NCBI RefSeq assembly: GCF_056746865.1
Contig: NZ_CM163382.1
Strand: one strand, 5' to 3'
Length of the DNA: 64,000 bases
A program made the position numbers and the translations under genes. Within the stretch, counting starts at the first letter, position 1. Each line of letters starts with the position of its first letter. The notes under the pieces were generated by a model. It was given only the letters and a program-made list of their open reading frames with translations, searched no databases and was not told where the DNA came from. Shown here piece after piece: positions 34,157 to 44,564 of this stretch.

Positions 34157-35245
34157 TAGACTGGCCCCCTGAATCTCCAGACAATCAATATCACTTAAAT
34201 AAGTGATAGTCTTAATACTAGTTTCTAGACTAGTCATTGGAGAATAGATGATTGATGTCTTAGGGCCGGAGAAACGCAGACGGCGTACTACACAGGAAAA
34301 GATCGCTATTGTTCAGCAGAGCTTTGAACCGGGAATGACGGTCTCCCTTGTTGCCCGGGGATGGGGAGTAAGCTTAGTCAGCCGTTGTCTCCGGGTGTCG
34401 CGTGCGCAGTTGCACGTCATTCTCAGACGAACCGATGACTGGAAAGATGGTCGCCGCAGCCGTCACTCAGATGATACGGATGTGCTTCTCCGTATACACC
34501 ATGTTATCGGAGAGCTGCCCACGTATGGTTATCGTCGGGTATGGGCGCTGCTTCGCAGACAGGCCGAACTTGATGGTATGCCTGCTATCAATGCCAAACG
34601 TGTTTACCGGATCATGCGCCAGAATGCGCTGTTGCTTGAGCGAAAAACCGCTGTACCGCCATCGAAACGGGCACATACTGGCAAAGTGGCCGTGAAAGAA
34701 AGCAATCAACGATGGTGCTCTGACGGGTTCGAGTTCCGCTGTGATAACGGAGAAAAACTGGGGGTCACGTTCGCGCTGGACTGCTGTGACCGTGAGGCAC
34801 TGCACTGGGCGGTCACTACGGGCGGCTTCGACAGTGAAACAGTACAGGACGTCATGCTGGGAGCGGTGGAACGCCGCTTCGGCAGCGAGCTTCCGACATC
34901 TCCAGTGGAGTGGCTGACGGATAATGGTTCATGCTACCGGGCTAATGAAACACGCCAGTTCGCCCGGATGCTGGGACTTGAACCGAAGAACACGGCGGTG
35001 CGGAGTCCGGAGAGTAACGGCATAGCAGAGAGCTTCGTGAAAACGATAAAGCGTGATTACATCAGTATCATGCCCAAACCAGACGGGTTAACGGCAGCAA
35101 AGAACCTTGCAGAGGCGTTCGAGCATTATAACGAATGGCATCCGCATAGTGCACTGGGTTATCGCTCGCCACGGGAATATCTACGGCAGCGGGCCAGTAA
35201 TGGGTTAAGTGATAACAGGTGTCTGGAAATATAGGGGCAAATCCA
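34157..35245 (+). mobile_element. IS2 deletion derivative (1,089 bp instead of ~1,331 bp)
   Basis: IS2 ends TAGACTGGCCCCCTGAATCTCCAGACAA... and ...CTGGAAATATAGGGGCAAATCCA; internal deletion between two TTGCCCGG repeats. Confidence 0.85.
34248..35234 (+). CDS. IS2 InsC(1-37)::InsD in-frame fusion transposase created by the internal deletion
   Basis: [37 protein letters not shown] joined directly to [21 protein letters not shown]... (InsD). Confidence 0.8.
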
Positions 35246-35440: not shown

Positions 35441-36007
35441 TTAAAAGTCACTACACCCAAGATGACGTTCAATGGCACCATGCGATTCAATGTAAGCCTG
35501 GGCCGTCTGTTCCAGTACACCAGGCTCAGCGTTGTATGTGTTAGCTGCATCAAATACCAACGACAGCACTTCAGGATACACAACCAGATGTGTAATGGAG
35601 TTATCTTCACCCAATACTTTTCCCCACGCCTGCTCAATCAGATTTCTGAGAGCCACCACCTCACGACTCTTACACCAGACATCGTTATTAAGTAGCAGTA
35701 CCATAAGATAAGGAGTGGTATCGTTAGCCACAGCTTCCCTACTCCAGAGATAATATAAAGGGGCGGGCTCAACAGATTTATCTTTACGTCGCTTGCACTG
35801 CAAATATTCAGAAATTAGTCTATGCAGTTCACCAGTAAAATCAGCCATCAGAGAGGGAATTGCCTTGTTCATACCTGGGCAAGGTATTAATTTAAATTGT
35901 AATAATTTAATTTTAGGATGTGTAGCTGCAGCCCGATACAGAGTTGCAAGGACATACTTTTGCCAGAGGGCGTTACAGGAAAGCTTAACGTTTGATTCTG
36001 TATACAT
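35441..36007 (-). CDS. Hypothetical protein (188 aa), AT-rich island gene
   Basis: ORF followed by a hairpin (35398-35422); no family recognised. Confidence 0.45.
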   Translation of the reverse strand: MYTESNVKLSCNALWQKYVLATLYRAAATHPKIKLLQFKLIPCPGMNKAIPSLMADFTGELHRLISEYLQCKRRKDKSVEPAPLYYLWSREAVANDTTPYLMVLLLNNDVWCKSREVVALRNLIEQAWGKVLGEDNSITHLVVYPEVLSLVFDAANTYNAEPGVLEQTAQAYIESHGAIERHLGCSDF

Positions 36008-36034: not shown

Positions 36035-36649
36035 TCAAAAACCGCTGTAGCCAAAGTTACGCTGGCCTGATGCTTTAGTGTCGAGCTTCGTCAGATAATC
36101 CAGACGTGCCAATAAGCGCTGATATTGCTCAGGGAAATCAGGATCGTTAATATCCAGGATGTAACGTCCATTAGCAGGGAAATGAACTAGTCCCTGGTGA
36201 TCTTCCAGTTCTAACCCTAAGGCACTGTACCAGGCTCCGGTAATTAACCCTCTCAGGGTGTCAGAGCGCTCATAGTCTCCCAGGTGGTAATAGGCGTCTT
36301 TGTTAAAAAAAAGGCAGACGTGATAATGACATTTAAAGGACTGCGTATATTCTTTCGCCCAGATAATACAAACCGACGTTGCGTAGGTGCGTTTGCCTTG
36401 TTGTTTTTTACGGTGTTGATCTGCATTAATTTTCGCATTCAGCGAGTTACGGAAACGAGATATCTCTCCGGGACTCAGGTTAGGAAAACAGGTAATGGTA
36501 TCCCCGTTGTCAATCACGGGAGGATAATGGAGATCCACCCGTATTGCCGTTATTCTGGGATGTTTCTGGAAGAGGTTATTCACCTGGTTTCTTATTTTTA
36601 ACCCGTGAGCCTCATGACATTCACCGTAAAGAGTTTCAATCGTAATCAT
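36035..36649 (-). CDS. YagK/YfjJ-like (inovirus Gp2-type) prophage protein, tentative
   Basis: Size (~204 aa) and position match the yagK/yfjJ genes of CP4-type elements; family call from memory only. Confidence 0.45.
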   Translation of the reverse strand: MITIETLYGECHEAHGLKIRNQVNNLFQKHPRITAIRVDLHYPPVIDNGDTITCFPNLSPGEISRFRNSLNAKINADQHRKKQQGKRTYATSVCIIWAKEYTQSFKCHYHVCLFFNKDAYYHLGDYERSDTLRGLITGAWYSALGLELEDHQGLVHFPANGRYILDINDPDFPEQYQRLLARLDYLTKLDTKASGQRNFGYSGF

Positions 36650-36739: not shown

Positions 36740-36845
36740 CCCAGAGGGATATATAACCCTCTGGGCGTCAATTAAGAAAAACGCTACTGCCTATTGTTAC
36801 ATTAGAGAACAGGATGATGTTACACAGTTACATTAGAACGTTCTA
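36740..36845. promoter_or_regulatory. Iteron/operator-like repeat cluster in a 380-bp AT-rich intergenic region
   Basis: Palindrome CCCAGAGGG-atatataa-CCCTCTGGG (36740-36765); direct repeats GTTACATTAGA(G)AAC at 36796 and 36827; 12-bp palindrome TAGAACGTTCTA (36834-36845). Confidence 0.45.
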
Positions 36846-37030
36846 AAACATTAAACAGAGTTATGATCTACACACAACTAATTATTTGGTATCAGAATAC
36901 CATTAGCTCTATTAGTACATCATATCCATCATTACACATATACTATACATCACAGATATAATATATATTACCTATCCAACGCACATGTATTTATAACTCC
37001 ATTGCCAATAGCTACAAGGACTATAAAATG

Positions 37031-37591
37031 TTACTCTGCAGTTAGATCAACAATACCTTTATCCCAGTGTCTTTTTACAGTGGATAAACTGATGCTTAAT
37101 TTTCTGGCTGTTTGTGACTGACTGAACCCCTGCAATTTCAACTGTCTGATATTTTTACTATGAATACTCCCTTCTTTCCTTCCTGGTTTTCTTTTAATTT
37201 TCCGGATACTGATGTCGGGAATTTTTCCTCTAATATCTGTAGGTAAAATCATCCCGGTGAGTACCACAGGAATATCATCACCATCCGGCAACTCTGATGA
37301 CGTAAAAAAGCAAATATTAATACCTTGTCTGATACTTAAAGATAAAACCTCCTGTATTTTTTCCGGCGTATTACCAAAACAAGTTAACGATTTAGTAATC
37401 AGAATATCACCCCTTTGCATATCCTGCGTCAGGAGTCGAACTAACCGTTTTCTGTCTGCCAGAGTATAATCCGGGCGACCCAATTCGCCTGTTAACTGCA
37501 ATAGTGGTTCTTTAAAATATCTCTGAATCATGGATTTTAAGCGATTAAGTTTTGACCATTTTTCAGAGTCTATGTATGCAAAACTCGCCAT
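37031..37591 (-). CDS. Serine-recombinase (resolvase/invertase) homolog with C-terminal HTH, lacking the catalytic residues
   Basis: Aligns to gamma-delta resolvase (GDILITKSLTCFGN vs GDVILVKKLDRLGR; C-terminal HTH ...QTARKLSISLSTVKRHW) but YARVST is replaced by YIDSEK and DR..R by TC..N. Confidence 0.6.
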   Translation of the reverse strand: MASFAYIDSEKWSKLNRLKSMIQRYFKEPLLQLTGELGRPDYTLADRKRLVRLLTQDMQRGDILITKSLTCFGNTPEKIQEVLSLSIRQGINICFFTSSELPDGDDIPVVLTGMILPTDIRGKIPDISIRKIKRKPGRKEGSIHSKNIRQLKLQGFSQSQTARKLSISLSTVKRHWDKGIVDLTAE

Positions 37592-37812: not shown

Positions 37813-38559
37813 TCATTCATCTTCAAATGGGTTAATAATAATAACATCTCCACCTGTTCTGGAACTTTGTGAAACTTCCTCTGTTCTCAGAACAGGCACT
37901 ATTACAGCCTTATTATTGATATAAAAAATCGGAATATGAAAAGTACAAAATCCTGTACTACGAATCTGATGTCGCCTCACTGTTTCTTTCGTACCATACT
38001 CAATCAACTCATCTATCGGCAGGCAAACTGAATTGCAAAAGTCAAAAAAATAATCCCCAAAAACACTGGTTTTAATCAGAATGGTTTTATAAAACCCTCC
38101 TGCACGATTCAGGGTATGGGAAACTTTTCTGTTCGTGTAAATACAAATTGCCTTCTCAACTTTATAATATTCCAGCATTAAGGTCGCATTCTCTTTAATT
38201 CCCTTTTTCTCTGCAACTCCCATAGCATTTCTGGTGCTTTCATGAGGAAATATCTTTCTATCGAGAACATCATATTCATATTTGATATGCGATTTATAAA
38301 TGCTATGAAAAAACTCTCCTTTTGTTATTTCAGGCTTTGTCCGTTGCACAAATGGTTCCTCATTAAAAAACTGACGTAGCTTATCCTCTATATCAGTTAT
38401 AGCAGCAATATTTTCATTTATCCTGTTTAAAACAGGAGCCCCTAGCTTTAAACACTCTTTAATCGCTGCTGAAAATGAGCATTTTTTTAAATGCTGATAC
38501 TTTTTAATTACATCAGCTTCATATGTTTCTGCAAGAGAGAAAGAGACACGTTTCATCAT
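37813..38559 (-). CDS. Hypothetical protein with N-terminal ribbon-helix-helix-like domain (248 aa)
   Basis: N-terminus MMKRVSFSLAETYEADVIKKYQHLKKCSFSAAIKECLKLG has the beta-strand/helix pattern of RHH (CopG/Arc) domains; the remainder is unassigned. Confidence 0.45.
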   Translation of the reverse strand: MMKRVSFSLAETYEADVIKKYQHLKKCSFSAAIKECLKLGAPVLNRINENIAAITDIEDKLRQFFNEEPFVQRTKPEITKGEFFHSIYKSHIKYEYDVLDRKIFPHESTRNAMGVAEKKGIKENATLMLEYYKVEKAICIYTNRKVSHTLNRAGGFYKTILIKTSVFGDYFFDFCNSVCLPIDELIEYGTKETVRRHQIRSTGFCTFHIPIFYINNKAVIVPVLRTEEVSQSSRTGGDVIIINPFEDE

Positions 38560-38621: not shown

Positions 38622-38849
38622 TTAATACTGACTAATCCACCACAATAGATCACTTAATAACCACCCACAGGATTTCTTTCCAATAGTTTTACGTGGCGGG
38701 AATTTTCCTTCACGTTCCAGTTTCCAGGCTTGTGAACGAGAAATAGACGTAATTTTCTGGCGTTCCTTTTCTCGTACCAGTCTGTCACAGGTGTATCCAT
38801 AGATCTTCAAAATTGATAAACGGTTCTCATCTCTTAACGGCTTCCACAT
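38622..38849 (-). CDS. AlpA-family prophage transcriptional regulator
   Basis: ...ITSISRSQAWKLEREGKFPPRKTIGKKSCGWLLSDLLWWI matches the AlpA pattern (SRSTIYRL..GKFP.P.KLG.RSV.W...V..WI). Confidence 0.65.
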   Translation of the reverse strand: MWKPLRDENRLSILKIYGYTCDRLVREKERQKITSISRSQAWKLEREGKFPPRKTIGKKSCGWLLSDLLWWISQY

Positions 38850-39628: not shown

Positions 39629-41233
39629 ATGGTAACTAAAAAGGTAAAAACAAACCACCCGTACTATCGTGTTTTATCCGGCACCTCCATGCCGTTTCCC
39701 CACATACATGAAGCTGTTTCCGAACAGTTGCTTCTACTCATTTTCAAAGCACGCAGATTGTATCTGGATCCAGAATATCGTCCTTGGTTTGATGAACAAC
39801 ATCGGATTCTCTCGGCATTACGCGCTAACACAAAACTCCAAAGTATTTTAGAGAAAAACAGAGAGAACTACTCCATAAGTGAGACCGATAATCCACTATC
39901 TAAAGATCTGTATGCTGCTTTTCAGGTTATGTGCCATTTATACAATGGTTTTGATAACAGACTCGTCAGCCTGAAAACCTGGGGAGATATGAACAGGGAA
40001 CCAACAGCAAAATTTGTCGGCCAAAATAGTGGTGGCTGGAAAACACCTGAGATGGAAGAATTCGTCAGAAACGATTTGTTCAATATTCTGACAGATTGTA
40101 AAGCTCATTGCTCACCACTTCCCGCTCTGGTTCGACAAGGATATTGCCATCAGGATCTTTCTGTTGCGCACTCATGTACTAAAGAATTACTGGAACAACT
40201 GAACCGATACCATCAAATTGATGAATCAGCGATACTTGCCAGAACCCTTGGTTTGGCTATTAACAACTGCTATCACTCAGAAACAGAGATTCCTGAATGG
40301 CTTTCTCCTTTTGAAAATGAATACAAAAGTCCCTGGAATTGTGAGAAACCAGATACTAACGATGTGAGTAAACTTAGAAAACAATTGCTAACAATCGGGC
40401 GTACAGAATTCGTGGACAAAATGTTTTCGCTAGCCAACAAAAATGCAACAAAGATAATATATGATGGATACGTTAAACTTTATGCTCTGGAAATATATGA
40501 ATGGTTAAATAAATTAGTGCAATATTTTAAAGGAAATGATTTTATTCGTTACACCTGGAAGTTCACAACAATTATTTCCGATGAAAGTGACACGATTGAA
40601 AACACCACCGCATGGGAAAAAGACTATTGTCAAATCACTATACAGCGTGATGAACTTCTGAAACTGATTTATACCAATACCCTGCAGGATGCAGCAATGA
40701 ATCTTGCTGATTGCCTGCAACAGGCATACACAGAACCGTTAAAAATGGAAATAAATTATCCAGGAATAAACATTGATGCAAAAGAGCGTAAAATTAGAAA
40801 ATCTATTGAATTCAGGAGCGAACTGAATAACTTCACAAACATCATGAAACAACTGGAAATATTTGAAAAATGGTATAACGCCAATAAAATTCTGTTGGTA
40901 AGTAACAAAAAGATACGTACAGAAAAGATTGACGTGAATATTCGTCTTGCAGGACTAAAAGGCTATGATCTGAATGAAGGTATACCTGATGGTCAGGGAC
41001 GCAGAATTAAAGATGGTGTAAATGAACTTGTCAAGGCAGATGGCAGTCTACAACTTCCACAAGATATCAGTGACACTTCGCTTAACCGTTACCGTCAAGC
41101 AGTTCAACACATTATTAAGGATGAGATCGACACGTTGCTGATAGCACAGAGGGAAAAAAATAAAATAAATCCATATAGCGAAGATAGATACTCGATACGA
41201 CCTTTATGGGGAAAATGTCTGGTCGAACAGTAA
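39629..41233 (+). CDS. Hypothetical protein (534 aa), AT-rich, in the integrase-proximal cargo slot; function unknown
   Basis: Long ORF with SD GGAAG upstream; no recognisable catalytic motifs apart from a possible R-x4-H (RQAVQH) near the C-terminus. Confidence 0.6.
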   Translation: MVTKKVKTNHPYYRVLSGTSMPFPHIHEAVSEQLLLLIFKARRLYLDPEYRPWFDEQHRILSALRANTKLQSILEKNRENYSISETDNPLSKDLYAAFQVMCHLYNGFDNRLVSLKTWGDMNREPTAKFVGQNSGGWKTPEMEEFVRNDLFNILTDCKAHCSPLPALVRQGYCHQDLSVAHSCTKELLEQLNRYHQIDESAILARTLGLAINNCYHSETEIPEWLSPFENEYKSPWNCEKPDTNDVSKLRKQLLTIGRTEFVDKMFSLANKNATKIIYDGYVKLYALEIYEWLNKLVQYFKGNDFIRYTWKFTTIISDESDTIENTTAWEKDYCQITIQRDELLKLIYTNTLQDAAMNLADCLQQAYTEPLKMEINYPGINIDAKERKIRKSIEFRSELNNFTNIMKQLEIFEKWYNANKILLVSNKKIRTEKIDVNIRLAGLKGYDLNEGIPDGQGRRIKDGVNELVKADGSLQLPQDISDTSLNRYRQAVQHIIKDEIDTLLIAQREKNKINPYSEDRYSIRPLWGKCLVEQ

Positions 41234-41315: not shown

Positions 41316-41942
41316 TTATGCGGCTTTACCATTAACAGATTCAGCCACAAGAACGACAGCGTGTCTGTTTCGCTCAGGATGTTCACTCCAGATTTCTGAT
41401 TCCGGGATGCTTTTCCCGTCATAACTGATCCGTTCGCCATCAAACGGGTAATACCGTGCGGAATCAGTATCTAAAATAAACACCTTCAGATTCGTTGAAC
41501 GACGCGCAATATGCTGCCAGAGAGCTTTACCTCCTTCATATTGCTCGTTATCACTTAATAGTACAACGCCCGCTTTTGTGACTATCGTTTCATAAACAAA
41601 CGTTGCAAGACCAACATCACGTACAGCGCCATCGACAACAATCCCTTCAATCTGAGCAACATCCTGTTCTTCCCAGAATTTCTGGACAAACACGCCTTCA
41701 AGCCGGGGACGACGCTGAAGCTCCAGAGTGGCAACAACCTTATGGCGAACATCACCATCAATAACAGAAGGTGCAGCTTCGATTACCGCAGCAAACGGAG
41801 TCTTTGGATCCCAGATGATCTGGTAAAGCACGCCCTGAATAGTTACTCCATCCAGTATCGAAAAACGACGAGCTACAGTAGCAGGGGAGTAAGACATTGG
41901 AATTACAGCCATTTTTGAATCCCCTCTGAGTAATACCGGCAC
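41316..41942 (-). CDS. Hypothetical protein (198-208 aa); GTG start at 41942 or ATG at 41912
   Basis: ORF convergent with the 534-aa gene; both candidate starts have an SD; no family recognised. Confidence 0.5.
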   Translation of the reverse strand: MPVLLRGDSKMAVIPMSYSPATVARRFSILDGVTIQGVLYQIIWDPKTPFAAVIEAAPSVIDGDVRHKVVATLELQRRPRLEGVFVQKFWEEQDVAQIEGIVVDGAVRDVGLATFVYETIVTKAGVVLLSDNEQYEGGKALWQHIARRSTNLKVFILDTDSARYYPFDGERISYDGKSIPESEIWSEHPERNRHAVVLVAESVNGKAA

Positions 41943-42041: not shown

Positions 42042-43358
42042 TCACCTTCTGCCAAACAGATTGACAACATTATTGCCTGTTTGCTGTTGATAGTTATTAA
42101 CCCGGTCCTCCCAGATCTCAAGTGCTCTGCGTTTTTCTGGCAAATAATCGTATCGATCATAATGTTTTGAACTGACATCGTTCAACGCATGATTTTGAAT
42201 ACGATCGCGGATTTCCTTACTGATCCCAGCTTCTCCCATTAACGTTTTACAGGTCCGACGTAAGTCACGTGCTGTAAAAATTTTAAAGTCAGGATTAAAA
42301 GCCCGGAAATACATGATAGCGCGAGCCAGACTGTCCGTACGAACCGGACGCTTACCATTAGTCGAAAGTGGAAAAATGTAAGGGCTGGATTTTTCTTTTG
42401 TTAACTCCTGCACACAGGATAATTCCTGTAATGCTGATTCAGTCAACGGTATCAAATGCTCTCGTTTATTTTTAGAGACATCAGCAGTCACCAGCAGCGT
42501 TTTTTGTTGAAAATCAACATCACACCACTGACTGGCGATCATTTCGAAAGGACGTTGCCCTCCGGTATAGATACAGAATCGGATCAAATGTTGCATCAAT
42601 AATCCAACGTTGGTTGCTTCAGCAAAATGTTCCATTAGAAAACGCAACTCTTCAAGTGTCAGCCAGGTATCACCGACTTTTTCAGCAGATGACTGTTTCG
42701 GTATCACTGACACCGGATTTGCCTCCAGCCCAAAAGTAATCCCTACACTTGTGTTCATCGGATCGTTATCTGCTTTCAGTCCATAGTTAAATGCAGCCAT
42801 CAGGTAAGAACGGATCCGGTTAGAGTGAACCACAGCACCGCGCTGAATGATCCCGGCCAGGATATGTTTAATCTGTCCGGAAGTCACATCTTTAGCTTTA
42901 GTTTCACGGGGGATCACTGTATAGCATTCATTTTCAAGGCGTTTCAGAACATCCTGCCATGTCCTCTTATTATCAATTTTCATTTTGTTAACATAACCAT
43001 GAATCAATGCTTCAAATGAGCCCTGTGATTGATGGAGTTGTATCCGCTGCTGTTCTGCAAACTGTTGTCGTTCCAGTTCTGCCTGGGGATCCTTTCCTTC
43101 AATGAGCCAGGCACCATACTTTTTTGTCAGTTCATTCGCTGTGGCCAGTTTCATCTCAGGCCATATACCCAATTGAATGAATCTTTCTTTTTTCCCTTTT
43201 TCCACGTAATAGCGGAAATAGAAAATCTTGCTGCCAGAAGGCTGAACTTTGACACCAAGTCGTCCAGTGCCACGTTGAGAGCTGTTGCTCCAGACATAGA
43301 ACGATGTCTTTTTTGCTTTCAATGCTCGGATGGCTGTTTCAGTAAGATTGACGGCCAT
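42042..43358 (-). CDS. int: P4-type tyrosine integrase
   Basis: 438-aa protein with N-terminal arm-binding domain (KIFYFRYY...) and C-terminal tyrosine-recombinase domain; adjacent to the tRNA-derived attachment core. Confidence 0.85.
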   Translation of the reverse strand: MAVNLTETAIRALKAKKTSFYVWSNSSQRGTGRLGVKVQPSGSKIFYFRYYVEKGKKERFIQLGIWPEMKLATANELTKKYGAWLIEGKDPQAELERQQFAEQQRIQLHQSQGSFEALIHGYVNKMKIDNKRTWQDVLKRLENECYTVIPRETKAKDVTSGQIKHILAGIIQRGAVVHSNRIRSYLMAAFNYGLKADNDPMNTSVGITFGLEANPVSVIPKQSSAEKVGDTWLTLEELRFLMEHFAEATNVGLLMQHLIRFCIYTGGQRPFEMIASQWCDVDFQQKTLLVTADVSKNKREHLIPLTESALQELSCVQELTKEKSSPYIFPLSTNGKRPVRTDSLARAIMYFRAFNPDFKIFTARDLRRTCKTLMGEAGISKEIRDRIQNHALNDVSSKHYDRYDYLPEKRRALEIWEDRVNNYQQQTGNNVVNLFGRR

Positions 43359-43405
43359 AGAACCTCTTTTCTAAACCAGTAACAATCAGAATAACTCGTG
43401 ATTTT

Positions 43406-43428
43406 GGGTCAGGTAATGGGTCAGGTAA
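43406..43428. repeat. Tandem direct repeats GGGTCAGGTAA x2 between integrase and the att core (candidate integrase arm sites)
   Basis: Two 11-bp copies separated by 1 bp, located 48 bp upstream of the integrase start. Confidence 0.5.
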
Positions 43429-43554
43429 CGATCGTACAATGAAGAAAAAACGGAACCAAGCGGAGACAGGGAAAATCACATAATTTATTGATTACAAACA
43501 ACTAATAAAGCAATCACGAACAAACAAAAACAATATAGAACGAACTTGCCTCAT

Positions 43555-43601
43555 GACTCATAATCGCTTGGTCGCTGGTTCAAGTCCAGCAGGGGCCACC
43601 A
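43555..43601 (+). other. ileX: 3' 47 nt of tRNA-Ile(CAU) (ileX-type): island/backbone junction (att core); the 5' part of the tRNA is absent here
   Basis: GACTCATAATCGCTTGGTCGCTGGTTCAAGTCCAGCAGGGGCCACCA matches the remembered 3' portion of E. coli tRNA-Ile2 from the anticodon loop to CCA; sequence upstream does not match the tRNA. Confidence 0.7.
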
Positions 43602-43610
43602 GATATAGCA

Positions 43611-43645
43611 AAGGCTGACGAGAAATCGTCAGCCTTTTTCTTTTT
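43611..43645 (+). terminator. Rho-independent terminator (native ileX terminator)
   Basis: Hairpin AAGGCTGACG-agaaat-CGTCAGCCTT followed by TTTTTCTTTTT. Confidence 0.75.
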
Positions 43646-43654
43646 ATATATCAG

Positions 43655-44419
43655 TTACTTTGCGTGCCAGTAAGCCGCTGCACGTACCCGCTGTGGATCA
43701 TACTGTTCCGCTTCAAAGCGGCGGCTTAAATTCTTAACGACTTTGCCTTCGCCGGTTATCCAGATGAAGTAATCATCGGCAGGGATTTGCATCTGCGCCA
43801 GACGCGCATCTACCGCCTGCTCATCATGTGCCAGCCATTCGATATTAAAACCATCAAGGTGCGCGAGATAATCCTGACAGGCGTGATCCCGCACGCTAAC
43901 CAGCGCGCTAACTTGCGGTTTAACAGCAAGTTTGCTCAACGTTTCCAGGCGGCGGCGCAGTGCGGGCATTCCGGATTCATCGCAGACATACAGCTGATAC
44001 GCGTAATCCTCTGGCATCACCAGCGAACCGCGCGGACCTGCCACCGTGAGTTTATCGCCCGGTTGCGCCTGCATTGCCCAGCTGCTGGCGACGCCACCTT
44101 CGTGAATAAAGAAATCAATCGCCAGTTCATGGCGTAGTTCGTCATACAGCGGCGTATAGTCACGCGACGGTGGGCGTGGTCCTTCCGGCCAGACGATGCC
44201 CTCTTCCGTTACCGTTGGCGGCACAAAGTGAGCATCAGATTGAGGAAAGAAGAGTTTGCTGTGATCGTCAAAGCCGCGCGATGTAAAACCGTCCAGCGCC
44301 TCGCCGCCAAGGACAATGCGCTGAAAACCGGCGCTAATACGCTCAGCGCGTAGCACAGTCAGTTCACGGAAGCGCAGATCATTGCGAACGCGCTGCGGGT
44401 AGCGGGGGGAGTTATTCAT
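43655..44419 (-). CDS. yqjH: Siderophore-interacting protein / NADPH-dependent ferric chelate reductase
   Basis: 254-aa protein matching remembered E. coli K-12 YqjH; conserved position after ileX. Confidence 0.9.
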   Translation of the reverse strand: MNNSPRYPQRVRNDLRFRELTVLRAERISAGFQRIVLGGEALDGFTSRGFDDHSKLFFPQSDAHFVPPTVTEEGIVWPEGPRPPSRDYTPLYDELRHELAIDFFIHEGGVASSWAMQAQPGDKLTVAGPRGSLVMPEDYAYQLYVCDESGMPALRRRLETLSKLAVKPQVSALVSVRDHACQDYLAHLDGFNIEWLAHDEQAVDARLAQMQIPADDYFIWITGEGKVVKNLSRRFEAEQYDPQRVRAAAYWHAK

Positions 44420-44564
44420 TGTTATCGCCTTCGTGATAGTAATCAGATATATCTAAATAAATTTCGCAAATGATAATGATTGTTAATCATGATAAATGCA
44501 AGCGATTTGTAGAACTGATATATCTGAAGTATGAGAAGACATTCAGCGTCGTAGCAAGGCTGTT

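Follow-up and report, generated by a model that had tools for sequence, protein, structure and literature searches.

A divergent YagL-family protein, probably a non-cutting derivative of the serine recombinases, in the core of an Escherichia coli genomic island

Introduction

The open reading frame (ORF) at positions 37031-37591 of a 64,000-nucleotide (nt) stretch of DNA (NCBI RefSeq assembly GCF_056746865.1, contig NZ_CM163382.1; the whole stretch is called the window hereafter) raises the question of what a protein built like a serine recombinase, and apparently deprived of its catalytic residues, may do in the core of a genomic island. The first-pass annotation of this DNA had described it as a resolvase/invertase homologue unlikely to cut DNA, acting rather as a site-specific DNA-binding regulator or as the partner of another recombinase. 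Our analysis indicates that the encoded protein is very probably a non-cutting recombinase derivative and, judged from its sequence, that it is a divergent member of the small YagL family of Enterobacterales. The process that it serves is proposed with much less confidence.

Much of the defence and metabolic cargo of the Enterobacterales is found in islands of the CP4-6 and CP4-57 type and related ones, in which the conserved core genes other than int and alpA are not known to have an assigned role. The window protein shared 36% identity over 142 amino acids (aa) with YagL of Escherichia coli K-12, encoded by the cryptic prophage CP4-6 (BLASTP E 2e-25). Neither this homology nor the fixed YagM/YagK neighbourhood of the gene had been noticed in the first-pass annotation. 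The ORF and its parts are the following:

37031-37591 (minus strand): YagL-family ORF from the ORF call, 186 aa, RefSeq WP_000135718.1
37238-37591 (minus strand): N-terminal resolvase-fold, pseudo-catalytic domain, residues 1-118
37559-37576 (minus strand): YIDSEK, residues 6-11, in place of YARVST in the gamma-delta resolvase and Hin alignments
37370-37387 (minus strand): LTCFGN, residues 69-74, in place of LDRLGR in the same alignments
37166-37237 (minus strand): linker apparently in place of the E-helix, and GR arm (PGRKEGS), residues 119-142
37058-37165 (minus strand): HTH_7 DNA-binding domain with recognition helix STVKRHW, residues 143-178 (Pfam E 3.7e-5)

Results and discussion

Loss of the catalytic residues

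The motifs YIDSEK and LTCFGN were found as the first-pass annotation had quoted them and, in alignments with gamma-delta resolvase and Hin, they fell on YARVST and LDRLGR in the same register. The alignment of residues 1-36 with gamma-delta resolvase was gapless. The residues of resolvase and those aligned with them in the window protein were:

Y6: Y6, kept
R8: D8
S10: E10
D36: E36, conservative
R45: R47, kept
D59: D62, kept
D67: T69
R68: C70
R71: N74

In Tn3 resolvase Y6, R8, S10, D36, R68 and R71 are crucial to catalysis; mutants at these six residues still bind the site, and those at R8, S10, R68 and R71 are essentially dead (Olorunniji & Stark 2009, PMC2794168). Four of the six (R8, S10, R68 and R71) are substituted in the window protein, as is D67. 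The place of the nucleophilic serine is taken by Glu10, and in the AlphaFold model S9-E10-K11 lie in the loop following strand 1, where S10 of resolvase sits.

The same positions were surveyed in 21 further full-length members, coming from E. coli K-12, Citrobacter, Photorhabdus, Yersinia, Mixta, Cedecea, Enterobacter, Winslowiella, Erwinia, Edaphovirga, Providencia and metagenomes. Neither D67 nor R68 was present in any of these relatives (0/21), and R8 was found in four. A serine at position 10 was limited to the K-12 YagL subclade, which has I or M at position 8. R8 and S10 did not occur together in any family member and no member had a complete catalytic set. Positions 9 and 10 varied among the members (A, R, T, Q, K, V, C, P or E). 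Y6 was retained in 21 of the 22 full-length members (F in locus L005) and position 36 was acidic in all of them. These alignments indicate that the catalytic loss is family-wide, and that the window protein, predicted to lack the serine nucleophile and the catalytic arginines, should not cut DNA. The earlier claim that the catalytic residues are lost and that cutting is unlikely was in this way confirmed.

A still active serine recombinase with its catalytic residues at shifted positions was also considered. Ser9, which could be the nucleophile, is one residue ahead of the S10 equivalent in the loop after strand 1, and Y6, the acidic residue at 36 and R45 are retained. However, the alignments with gamma-delta resolvase and Hin gave no catalytic Ser, Arg or Asp at shifted positions, Ser9 itself is not conserved in the family, and there are no arginines around it. 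In addition, the stretch aligned with the E-helix, which dimer and tetramer formation require, holds four prolines, and the same genomic slot is filled elsewhere by versions consisting of the helix-turn-helix (HTH) part only, so catalysis cannot be the conserved function. No candidate paired recombination sites were seen around the gene either. We regard an active enzyme as extremely improbable.

Resolvase homology and the phosphoribosyltransferase name

When the window protein was searched alone, its match to Pfam Resolvase (E 0.073, 13.6 bits) stayed below the cut-off of 23.3 and that to HTH_7 (E 3.7e-5) was barely over its own. The single-sequence search of solved structures placed hypoxanthine phosphoribosyltransferase (HPRT) at the top (E 2.6e-4, residues 46-119), and Tn3 and gamma-delta resolvases below it (E 0.04-0.12). 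This ambiguity was settled by a profile made from ten YagL-family members (alignment A3), because the profile favoured resolvase: gamma-delta resolvase was matched with E 1.6e-11, collinear over its full length (1-182 against 1-175), followed by Tn3 resolvase (6e-11), Gin (1e-5) and Sin (3e-4), and HPRT weakened to 0.003-0.14 in a patch of 50-60 residues. Seven of the ten members matched Pfam Resolvase singly (best 1.2e-6) and all of them matched HTH_7. The serine-recombinase homology proposed at first was thus borne out by the family profile, the single protein being under the threshold of Pfam Resolvase.

The structure prediction agreed with this. Residues 1-100 of the AlphaFold model formed a complete resolvase-type sheet, with a predicted local distance difference test (pLDDT) score of 68-86 (means of 10-residue blocks), and three helices were placed within residues 143-176 (pLDDT 78-94). 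Profile, model and alignments together show that the alpha/beta fold of resolvases has been retained in the window protein, along with the Gly-Arg arm and HTH_7.

The identical protein is a hypothetical protein in RefSeq (WP_000135718.1), and newer records of the Prokaryotic Genome Annotation Pipeline (PGAP)/RefSeq (e.g. NZ_CP073943.1, NZ_CP051001.1 and NZ_CP103557.1) name it type I phosphoribosyltransferase. Besides the rank of HPRT in the structure search and the use of this name by PGAP in several genomes, such an activity could be argued from the similarity of the stretch DILITKSLTCFGNT to the phosphoribosyl pyrophosphate (PRPP) loop VLIVEDIIDSGNT in the HPRT alignment. However, the acidic ED pair before the phosphate loop is TK in the window protein (ILITKSLTCFGNT against VLIVEDIIDSGNT), so that the PRPP motif is lacking, and neither a phosphoribosyltransferase fold nor sequence similarity at family level was found. 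The name rests on one strand-loop-helix element without the acidic pair and is contradicted by the profile, fold and motif tests. The label therefore looks like a misannotation, and we give this enzymatic activity hardly any credit. Both this name and that of recombinase family protein, which the K-12 YagL homologues bear in annotation, imply enzymatic activities that are almost certainly absent.

Arm, helix-turn-helix domain and selection

Residues G137 and R138 aligned to G141 and R142 of gamma-delta resolvase. They belong, together with S142, S170, T171, V172, K173, R174 and W176, to the columns that are invariant in the family; the arm thus reads G-R-x-x-x-S, and the recognition helix, STVKR[HNY]W, varies at position 175 only (H, N or Y). 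Between clades, identity reached 45-71% in the arm and HTH and 12-51% in the core of the N-domain, the N-domain of the window protein being 16-27% identical to those of other clades.

Proteins of 58-78 aa with the arm and the HTH and no resolvase-like domain were found in Aeromonas, Arsenophonus, Serratia and Kluyvera (L numbers designate the loci compared):

L028, 4986-5177: HTH-only version, Aeromonas dhakensis
L029, 4935-5171: HTH-only version, Arsenophonus
L031, 4977-5153: HTH-only version, Serratia grimesii
L037, 214-390: HTH-only version, Kluyvera georgiana

In L028, L029 and L031 the short gene lies exactly between yagM and yagK with no space for an N-domain; in L037, a short contig, it precedes yagK and the yagM side is beyond the contig. 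Since the arm and the HTH show the highest conservation and occur by themselves in these genera, the conserved function resides in them. The N-domain is an optional yet selected add-on: in ortholog pairs of relatives with unsaturated dS, the Nei-Gojobori dN/dS was 0.10-0.39 for the N-domain and 0.05-0.20 for the linker plus arm and HTH in the informative pairs. These ratios show that the catalytically dead N-domain is under purifying selection among the relatives.

Of the full-length forms in this family, the window copy is the most eroded. In its model a strand at residues 109-115 is followed by residues 119-139 with pLDDT below 50. The stretch aligned with the E-helix (residues ~102-133) holds four prolines and three glycines in 32 residues, a composition unique to this copy; the same stretch has no proline in gamma-delta resolvase and Hin and zero to three in the relatives. 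In this low-confidence region of the model, the long dimerising E-helix appears to be missing. Additionally, the stop codon is shifted, and the ORF runs five residues (DLTAE) past the usual C-terminus of the family.

The ORF is intact, with an ATG start codon and GAGG 4 nt 5' of it. The gene is carried by 257 of 5,426 complete E. coli genomes, with at least 99% identity wherever it is complete, and the ORF is uninterrupted at that identity in 256 of them. A word-indexed protein search with the window protein recovered its own clusters and nothing else, and exhaustive scanning with HMMER was required; over 1.84 billion cluster representatives it yielded just 33 proteins at E<=1e-3, of which about nine were full-length relatives (181-194 aa) and about a dozen short HTH-only clusters. 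The window protein aligned jointly with eight other family representatives. The phage collection searched gave no match, and among the plasmids searched only F-primes bearing K-12 yagL and one small Salmonella record were matched. As databases already record that YagL resembles resolvases, the family is a known one which now has a new divergent member.

These data bear on the possibility that, in the window lineage, the N-domain is a decaying relic, only the HTH working if anything does, and that the gene is heading to the HTH-only form or to loss. The HTH-only forms of other genera, the prolines and glycines that this copy alone carries in the E-helix region, the displaced stop codon, which reads into a conserved noncoding motif described below, and the gap between 38% and 99% identity in which no relatives were found would all fit such a decay. 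However, the ORF is intact in 256 genomes, a complete resolvase-type sheet is predicted, the divergence of the N-domain is no greater than between other clades, and the N-domains of the relatives are under purifying selection. We consider a decaying N-domain unlikely, although it is to be taken seriously.

The conserved island core

The genes around the ORF are listed here:

37813-38559 (minus strand): YagM-like gene, immediate upstream partner, 31% identity to K-12 YagM (E 2e-32)
36035-36649 (minus strand): YagK/YfjJ ('inovirus Gp2 family') gene, immediate downstream partner (Pfam E 4e-55)
38622-38849 (minus strand): AlpA-family regulator, first gene of the co-directional run (Pfam Phage_AlpA E 2.5e-14)
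42042-43358 (minus strand): tyrosine integrase of the island (Pfam Arm-DNA-bind_3 and Phage_integrase; RefSeq WP_001696226.1)
35441-36007 (minus strand): second, more divergent YagK/YfjJ-domain ORF, directly after the first (Pfam E 6.6e-10)
34248-35234 (plus strand): IS3-family transposase gene, separating the core from the sugar-utilisation cargo
39629-41233 (plus strand): 534-aa ORF between alpA and the integrase, no Pfam or PADLOC match
41316-41942 (minus strand): 208-aa ORF between alpA and the integrase, no Pfam or PADLOC match; PHROG families of unknown function (E 2e-129)

Every metagenomic or genomic locus reaching far enough upstream showed the order (int) - AlpA/HTH_17 - YagM (PF27701) - YagL-like - YagK, although the family members in these loci share just 23-38% identity with the window protein. 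The triplet YagM - YagL - YagK was present in six metagenome or genome loci (L005, L007, L009, L011 and L012/L013; five distinct proteins) and in approximately 18 of the 25 species genomes coming from the genome scan, K-12 having its yagL and yagM at 8221-9800 of L002. The gene thus has a fixed slot between YagM-like and YagK/YfjJ-like genes, downstream of int and alpA. Beyond the module the cargo varies: type I restriction-modification, cyclic oligonucleotide-based antiphage signalling (CBASS) and toxins in other loci, raffinose/sucrose-type sugar genes in the window. As the order of the core is conserved and the cargo after it changes, the gene belongs to the island core and not to the cargo.

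The YagK family has the invariant columns R-V-D, H-x-H and Y-x-x-K, which constitute an HUH endonuclease signature, and it gave weak matches to Pfam REP_ORF2-G2P (E 2.6e-4) and to a PHROG replication-initiation family (E 7e-5). The YagK-like neighbour is, on these motifs, a predicted HUH-type nuclease or Rep-like protein. In the YagM family (UCP007319/PF27701 in relatives) the N-terminus weakly resembled the CopG ribbon-helix-helix (RHH) domain (profile E 0.05), and no relatives of the rest of the YagM-like protein were detectable among solved structures. PADLOC gave no match with the five core proteins, nor did Rfam over 34-46 kb of the window. The annotated K-12 YagL ORF has an N-terminal extension of 43 residues that is absent from the relatives.

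The island adjoins nfeF in the window (42042-44420), in which there is no tRNA or transfer-messenger RNA (tmRNA) gene. In strain SLK172 (L001, 26043-35735) the same integrase (WP_001696226.1) and the module are in the ssrA-proximal region, adjoining ypjA. These placements suggest either two insertion contexts or a rearrangement.

The noncoding element after the yagL stop codon

A conserved noncoding element, some 100 nt long, extends from the stop codon of yagL. Its parts are motif A (CTAATTGCAGAGTAAC), a hairpin (CAGCCATCACAGGCTG), for which some loci have different hairpins, and motif B (GTTGGAWAGGTAWTATA, frequently continued by TATAATGGC). In the window it occupies 36964-37045 of the minus strand. 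It is listed with the repeats of the same spacer and with the copies of motif B in other loci:

37030-37045 (minus strand): motif A (CTAACTGCAGAGTAAC), from the post-stop alignment of 26 loci, overlapping here the last five codons and the stop
36964-36980 (minus strand): motif B (GTTGGATAGGTAATATA), single exact copy in the window
L002, 8130-8146: motif B
L005, 4044-4060: motif B
L007, 8653-8669: motif B
L009, 8646-8662: motif B
L011, 4428-4444: motif B
L012, 2716-2732: motif B
L014, 7472-7488: motif B
36740-36765: near-perfect palindrome with 13-nt arms (CCCAGAGGGATAT/ATAACCCTCTGGG), upstream of the yagK-like gene
36796-36806 and 36827-36837: 11-nt direct repeat GTTACATTAGA, two copies, upstream of the yagK-like gene

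One exact copy of motif B was present in 11 of the 13 loci compared. It is located 67-81 nt past the yagL stop in most loci (50 nt in L028) and 120-460 nt from the yagK start. The element may act as a promoter, its -10 being perfect, or as the origin or nick site of the HUH protein. In the latter respect, the TTG(G)ATA core of motif B resembles what we take to be the nick site, CTTGATA, of Rep proteins of the pC194/phiX174 type; on the opposite strand the motif resembles a presumed half-site of the Gin/Hin type (TTATCCAAAACC). No covariation was seen between the H/N/Y variants of the recognition helix and the variants of motif B, and the promoter and terminator scan was not above shuffles.

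The first-pass annotation had named the repeat cluster at 36740-36845 as a candidate for binding by the protein. In other loci the palindromes before yagK, in the yagL-yagK spacer, differ in sequence when compared by eye. The cluster is a poor candidate for a YagL site because the palindromes vary and the recognition helix stays invariant. Our results suggest that the palindrome and repeats at 36740-36837 are a locus-specific operator or an RNA hairpin.

Proposed function of the protein

The reading that we favour, and hold to be reasonably probable, is that of a non-cutting, resolvase-derived DNA-binding protein which is an accessory factor or regulator of the island core. By analogy with the C-terminal domains of resolvases, its ligand would be nucleic acid, in all likelihood duplex DNA, contacted by the arm in the minor groove and in the major groove by the recognition helix, the invariant STVKRHW. 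The dead N-domain might be a scaffold for oligomerisation or for contact with a YagM-like or YagK-like partner, and no strand exchange would be carried out by the protein. As a regulator, or as an accessory or architectural factor, it may control the operon or yagK, or help to assemble the nucleoprotein complex of the HUH nuclease or of the integrase. A DNA-binding role fits because the arm and HTH are the best-conserved part and HTH-only forms share the slot. The role foreseen in the first-pass annotation is supported in this part; as for the partner recombinase, no other serine-recombinase ORF was found in the 64-kb window, the tyrosine integrase being the only site-specific recombinase nearby.

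Several observations weigh against the proposed role. The only experimental work on a family member, K-12 YagL, reported RNA binding and RNA-chaperone activity and not sequence-specific DNA binding (PMC11587861). The E-helix region of the window protein looks degenerate, and the structural model is of moderate confidence overall (pLDDT 71). In addition, selection on the window allele is not measurable, identity being at least 99% among the copies in E. coli and dropping to ~38% in the next relatives. A search for the DNA target of YagL, in which shared 9-mers and best-match 12-mers were sought over divergent loci in the stretch between a point 2.6-3.5 kb upstream of yagL and the start of yagK, recovered just the post-stop element, the remainder being AT-rich noise at shuffle level. 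This element was found without a YagL homologue in CP4-57, degenerate (14/17 in motif B), after yfjI and upstream of yfjJ, and it was absent from L021 and L027, where YagL is of the usual type and yagK of a different one. As the element tracks the yagK type and not yagL, it was assigned to yagK, either as its promoter or as a site of the HUH protein.

The K-12 study is also the basis of another explanation, in which the main job of the protein is that of a general RNA chaperone or RNA-binding protein. It is the one published study of YagL, and it treats YagL as a predicted resolvase; purified YagL binds single-stranded and double-stranded RNA through its HTH, the isolated HTH binds nucleic acid in vitro, and the protein speeds up the refolding of a misfolded group I ribozyme (PMC11587861). 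However, YagL binds non-specifically, with affinities in the micromolar range, and a heterologous substrate was used (PMC11587861), and the window protein is just 36% identical to YagL. Moreover, the K-12 yagM, yagL and yfjI genes are behind some of the strongest Rho-dependent terminators, yagL being barely expressed normally and rising 66-fold in a Rho mutant (PMC9160355), which indicates that the K-12 module is normally silenced. The confinement of the family to one fixed slot in mobile-island cores, where its neighbours include an HUH nuclease and an integrase, suggests a DNA transaction of the mobile element. RNA chaperoning is rated as a side activity because of the Rho-dependent silencing of yagM and yagL and of the strict mobile-element context; as the main function, it seems improbable to us. 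The catalytic loss should be kept in mind when the published account of YagL, as a predicted resolvase, is read.

A further alternative is an accessory or directionality factor that serves the neighbouring tyrosine integrase, and not the HUH nuclease or transcription. The distance from the gene to the integrase and to AlpA never exceeds a few kb, and members of the AlpA family are tied to integrase expression and excision according to work cited in bioRxiv 10.1101/2024.08.29.610337. However, the stretch scanned above showed no site conserved close to the ends of the island or to the promoter of the integrase, and CP4-57 has the layout int-alpA-...-yfjJ without YagL. A dedicated integrase factor is, in our opinion, an unlikely outcome. 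Both this alternative and the decaying N-domain overlap the role of accessory or regulator that we favour rather than exclude it.

As a more specific and speculative form of that role, to which we give little credence, the dead resolvase could be the DNA-recognition or architectural subunit of the YagK-like HUH nuclease, binding at or near the post-stop element. These two proteins and the YagM-like protein, with its RHH, would make up a complex for origin function or nicking. If this were true, the complex would replicate or mobilise the widespread 'non-autonomous' defence and metabolic islands after excision, and a serine-recombinase scaffold would have been recruited into an initiation machine of the rolling-circle type.

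No relevant reports on pseudo- or inactive resolvases, or on the function of YagK/YfjJ/YagM, were found in the literature searchable, nor were the family-wide catalytic death, the selection, the HTH-only replacement or the lock between YagM and the HUH nuclease found described there. Taken alone, one more HTH pseudo-enzyme is a modest addition, and its value is that of an entry point to the workings of the islands. The YagL slot holds a selected, catalytically dead (as predicted) recombinase derivative with an HUH-type YagK neighbour and a sharply conserved noncoding element between them, and YagL, YagK and this element are concrete testable parts for island regulation, replication and mobilisation.

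Comparison with known systems

The likeness to type I phosphoribosyltransferases is limited to the local similarity of one strand-loop-helix element, whereas all the tests of profile, fold and motif fail. With K-12 YagL the window protein shares the resolvase-like N-domain, the GRKEGS arm and the ISLSTVKRHW HTH, and its gene likewise lies between YagM upstream and YagK downstream, with the same noncoding motifs following its stop codon. In contrast, YagL keeps a serine at the nucleophile position and R71 (not R8, D67 or R68), which the window protein lacks, its E-helix region is proline-poor, and the experimental data, on RNA chaperoning, concern YagL only (PMC11587861).

In the tmRNA-linked defence islands of Pseudomonas, IntY, AlpA, an 'inovirus Gp2-like protein' and an 'HTH-containing protein' are probable core genes of unknown role (bioRxiv 10.1101/2024.08.29.610337). 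These islands are also non-autonomous integrative elements whose core comprises int, alpA, a Gp2-like (YagK/YfjJ) gene and an HTH gene, with defence cargo. However, their gene order and host group are different.

Finally, the fold and domain order of gamma-delta and Tn3 resolvases and of Hin, Gin and Pin are those of the window protein, collinear over the whole length, as are the arm and HTH_7 module and the S-T-V/L opening of the recognition helix. Unlike these small serine recombinases, the window protein has no nucleophile, catalytic arginines or flanking paired sites, its E-helix region looks degenerate, and its gene is in the core of an island with an integrase and an HUH nuclease and not with a transposon or an invertible segment. 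Tn3 and gamma-delta resolvases also act as transcriptional repressors at res. Although those repressors recombine as well, whereas the window protein would be limited to a non-catalytic role, they offer a precedent for gene regulation by a resolvase-type protein through site binding alone.

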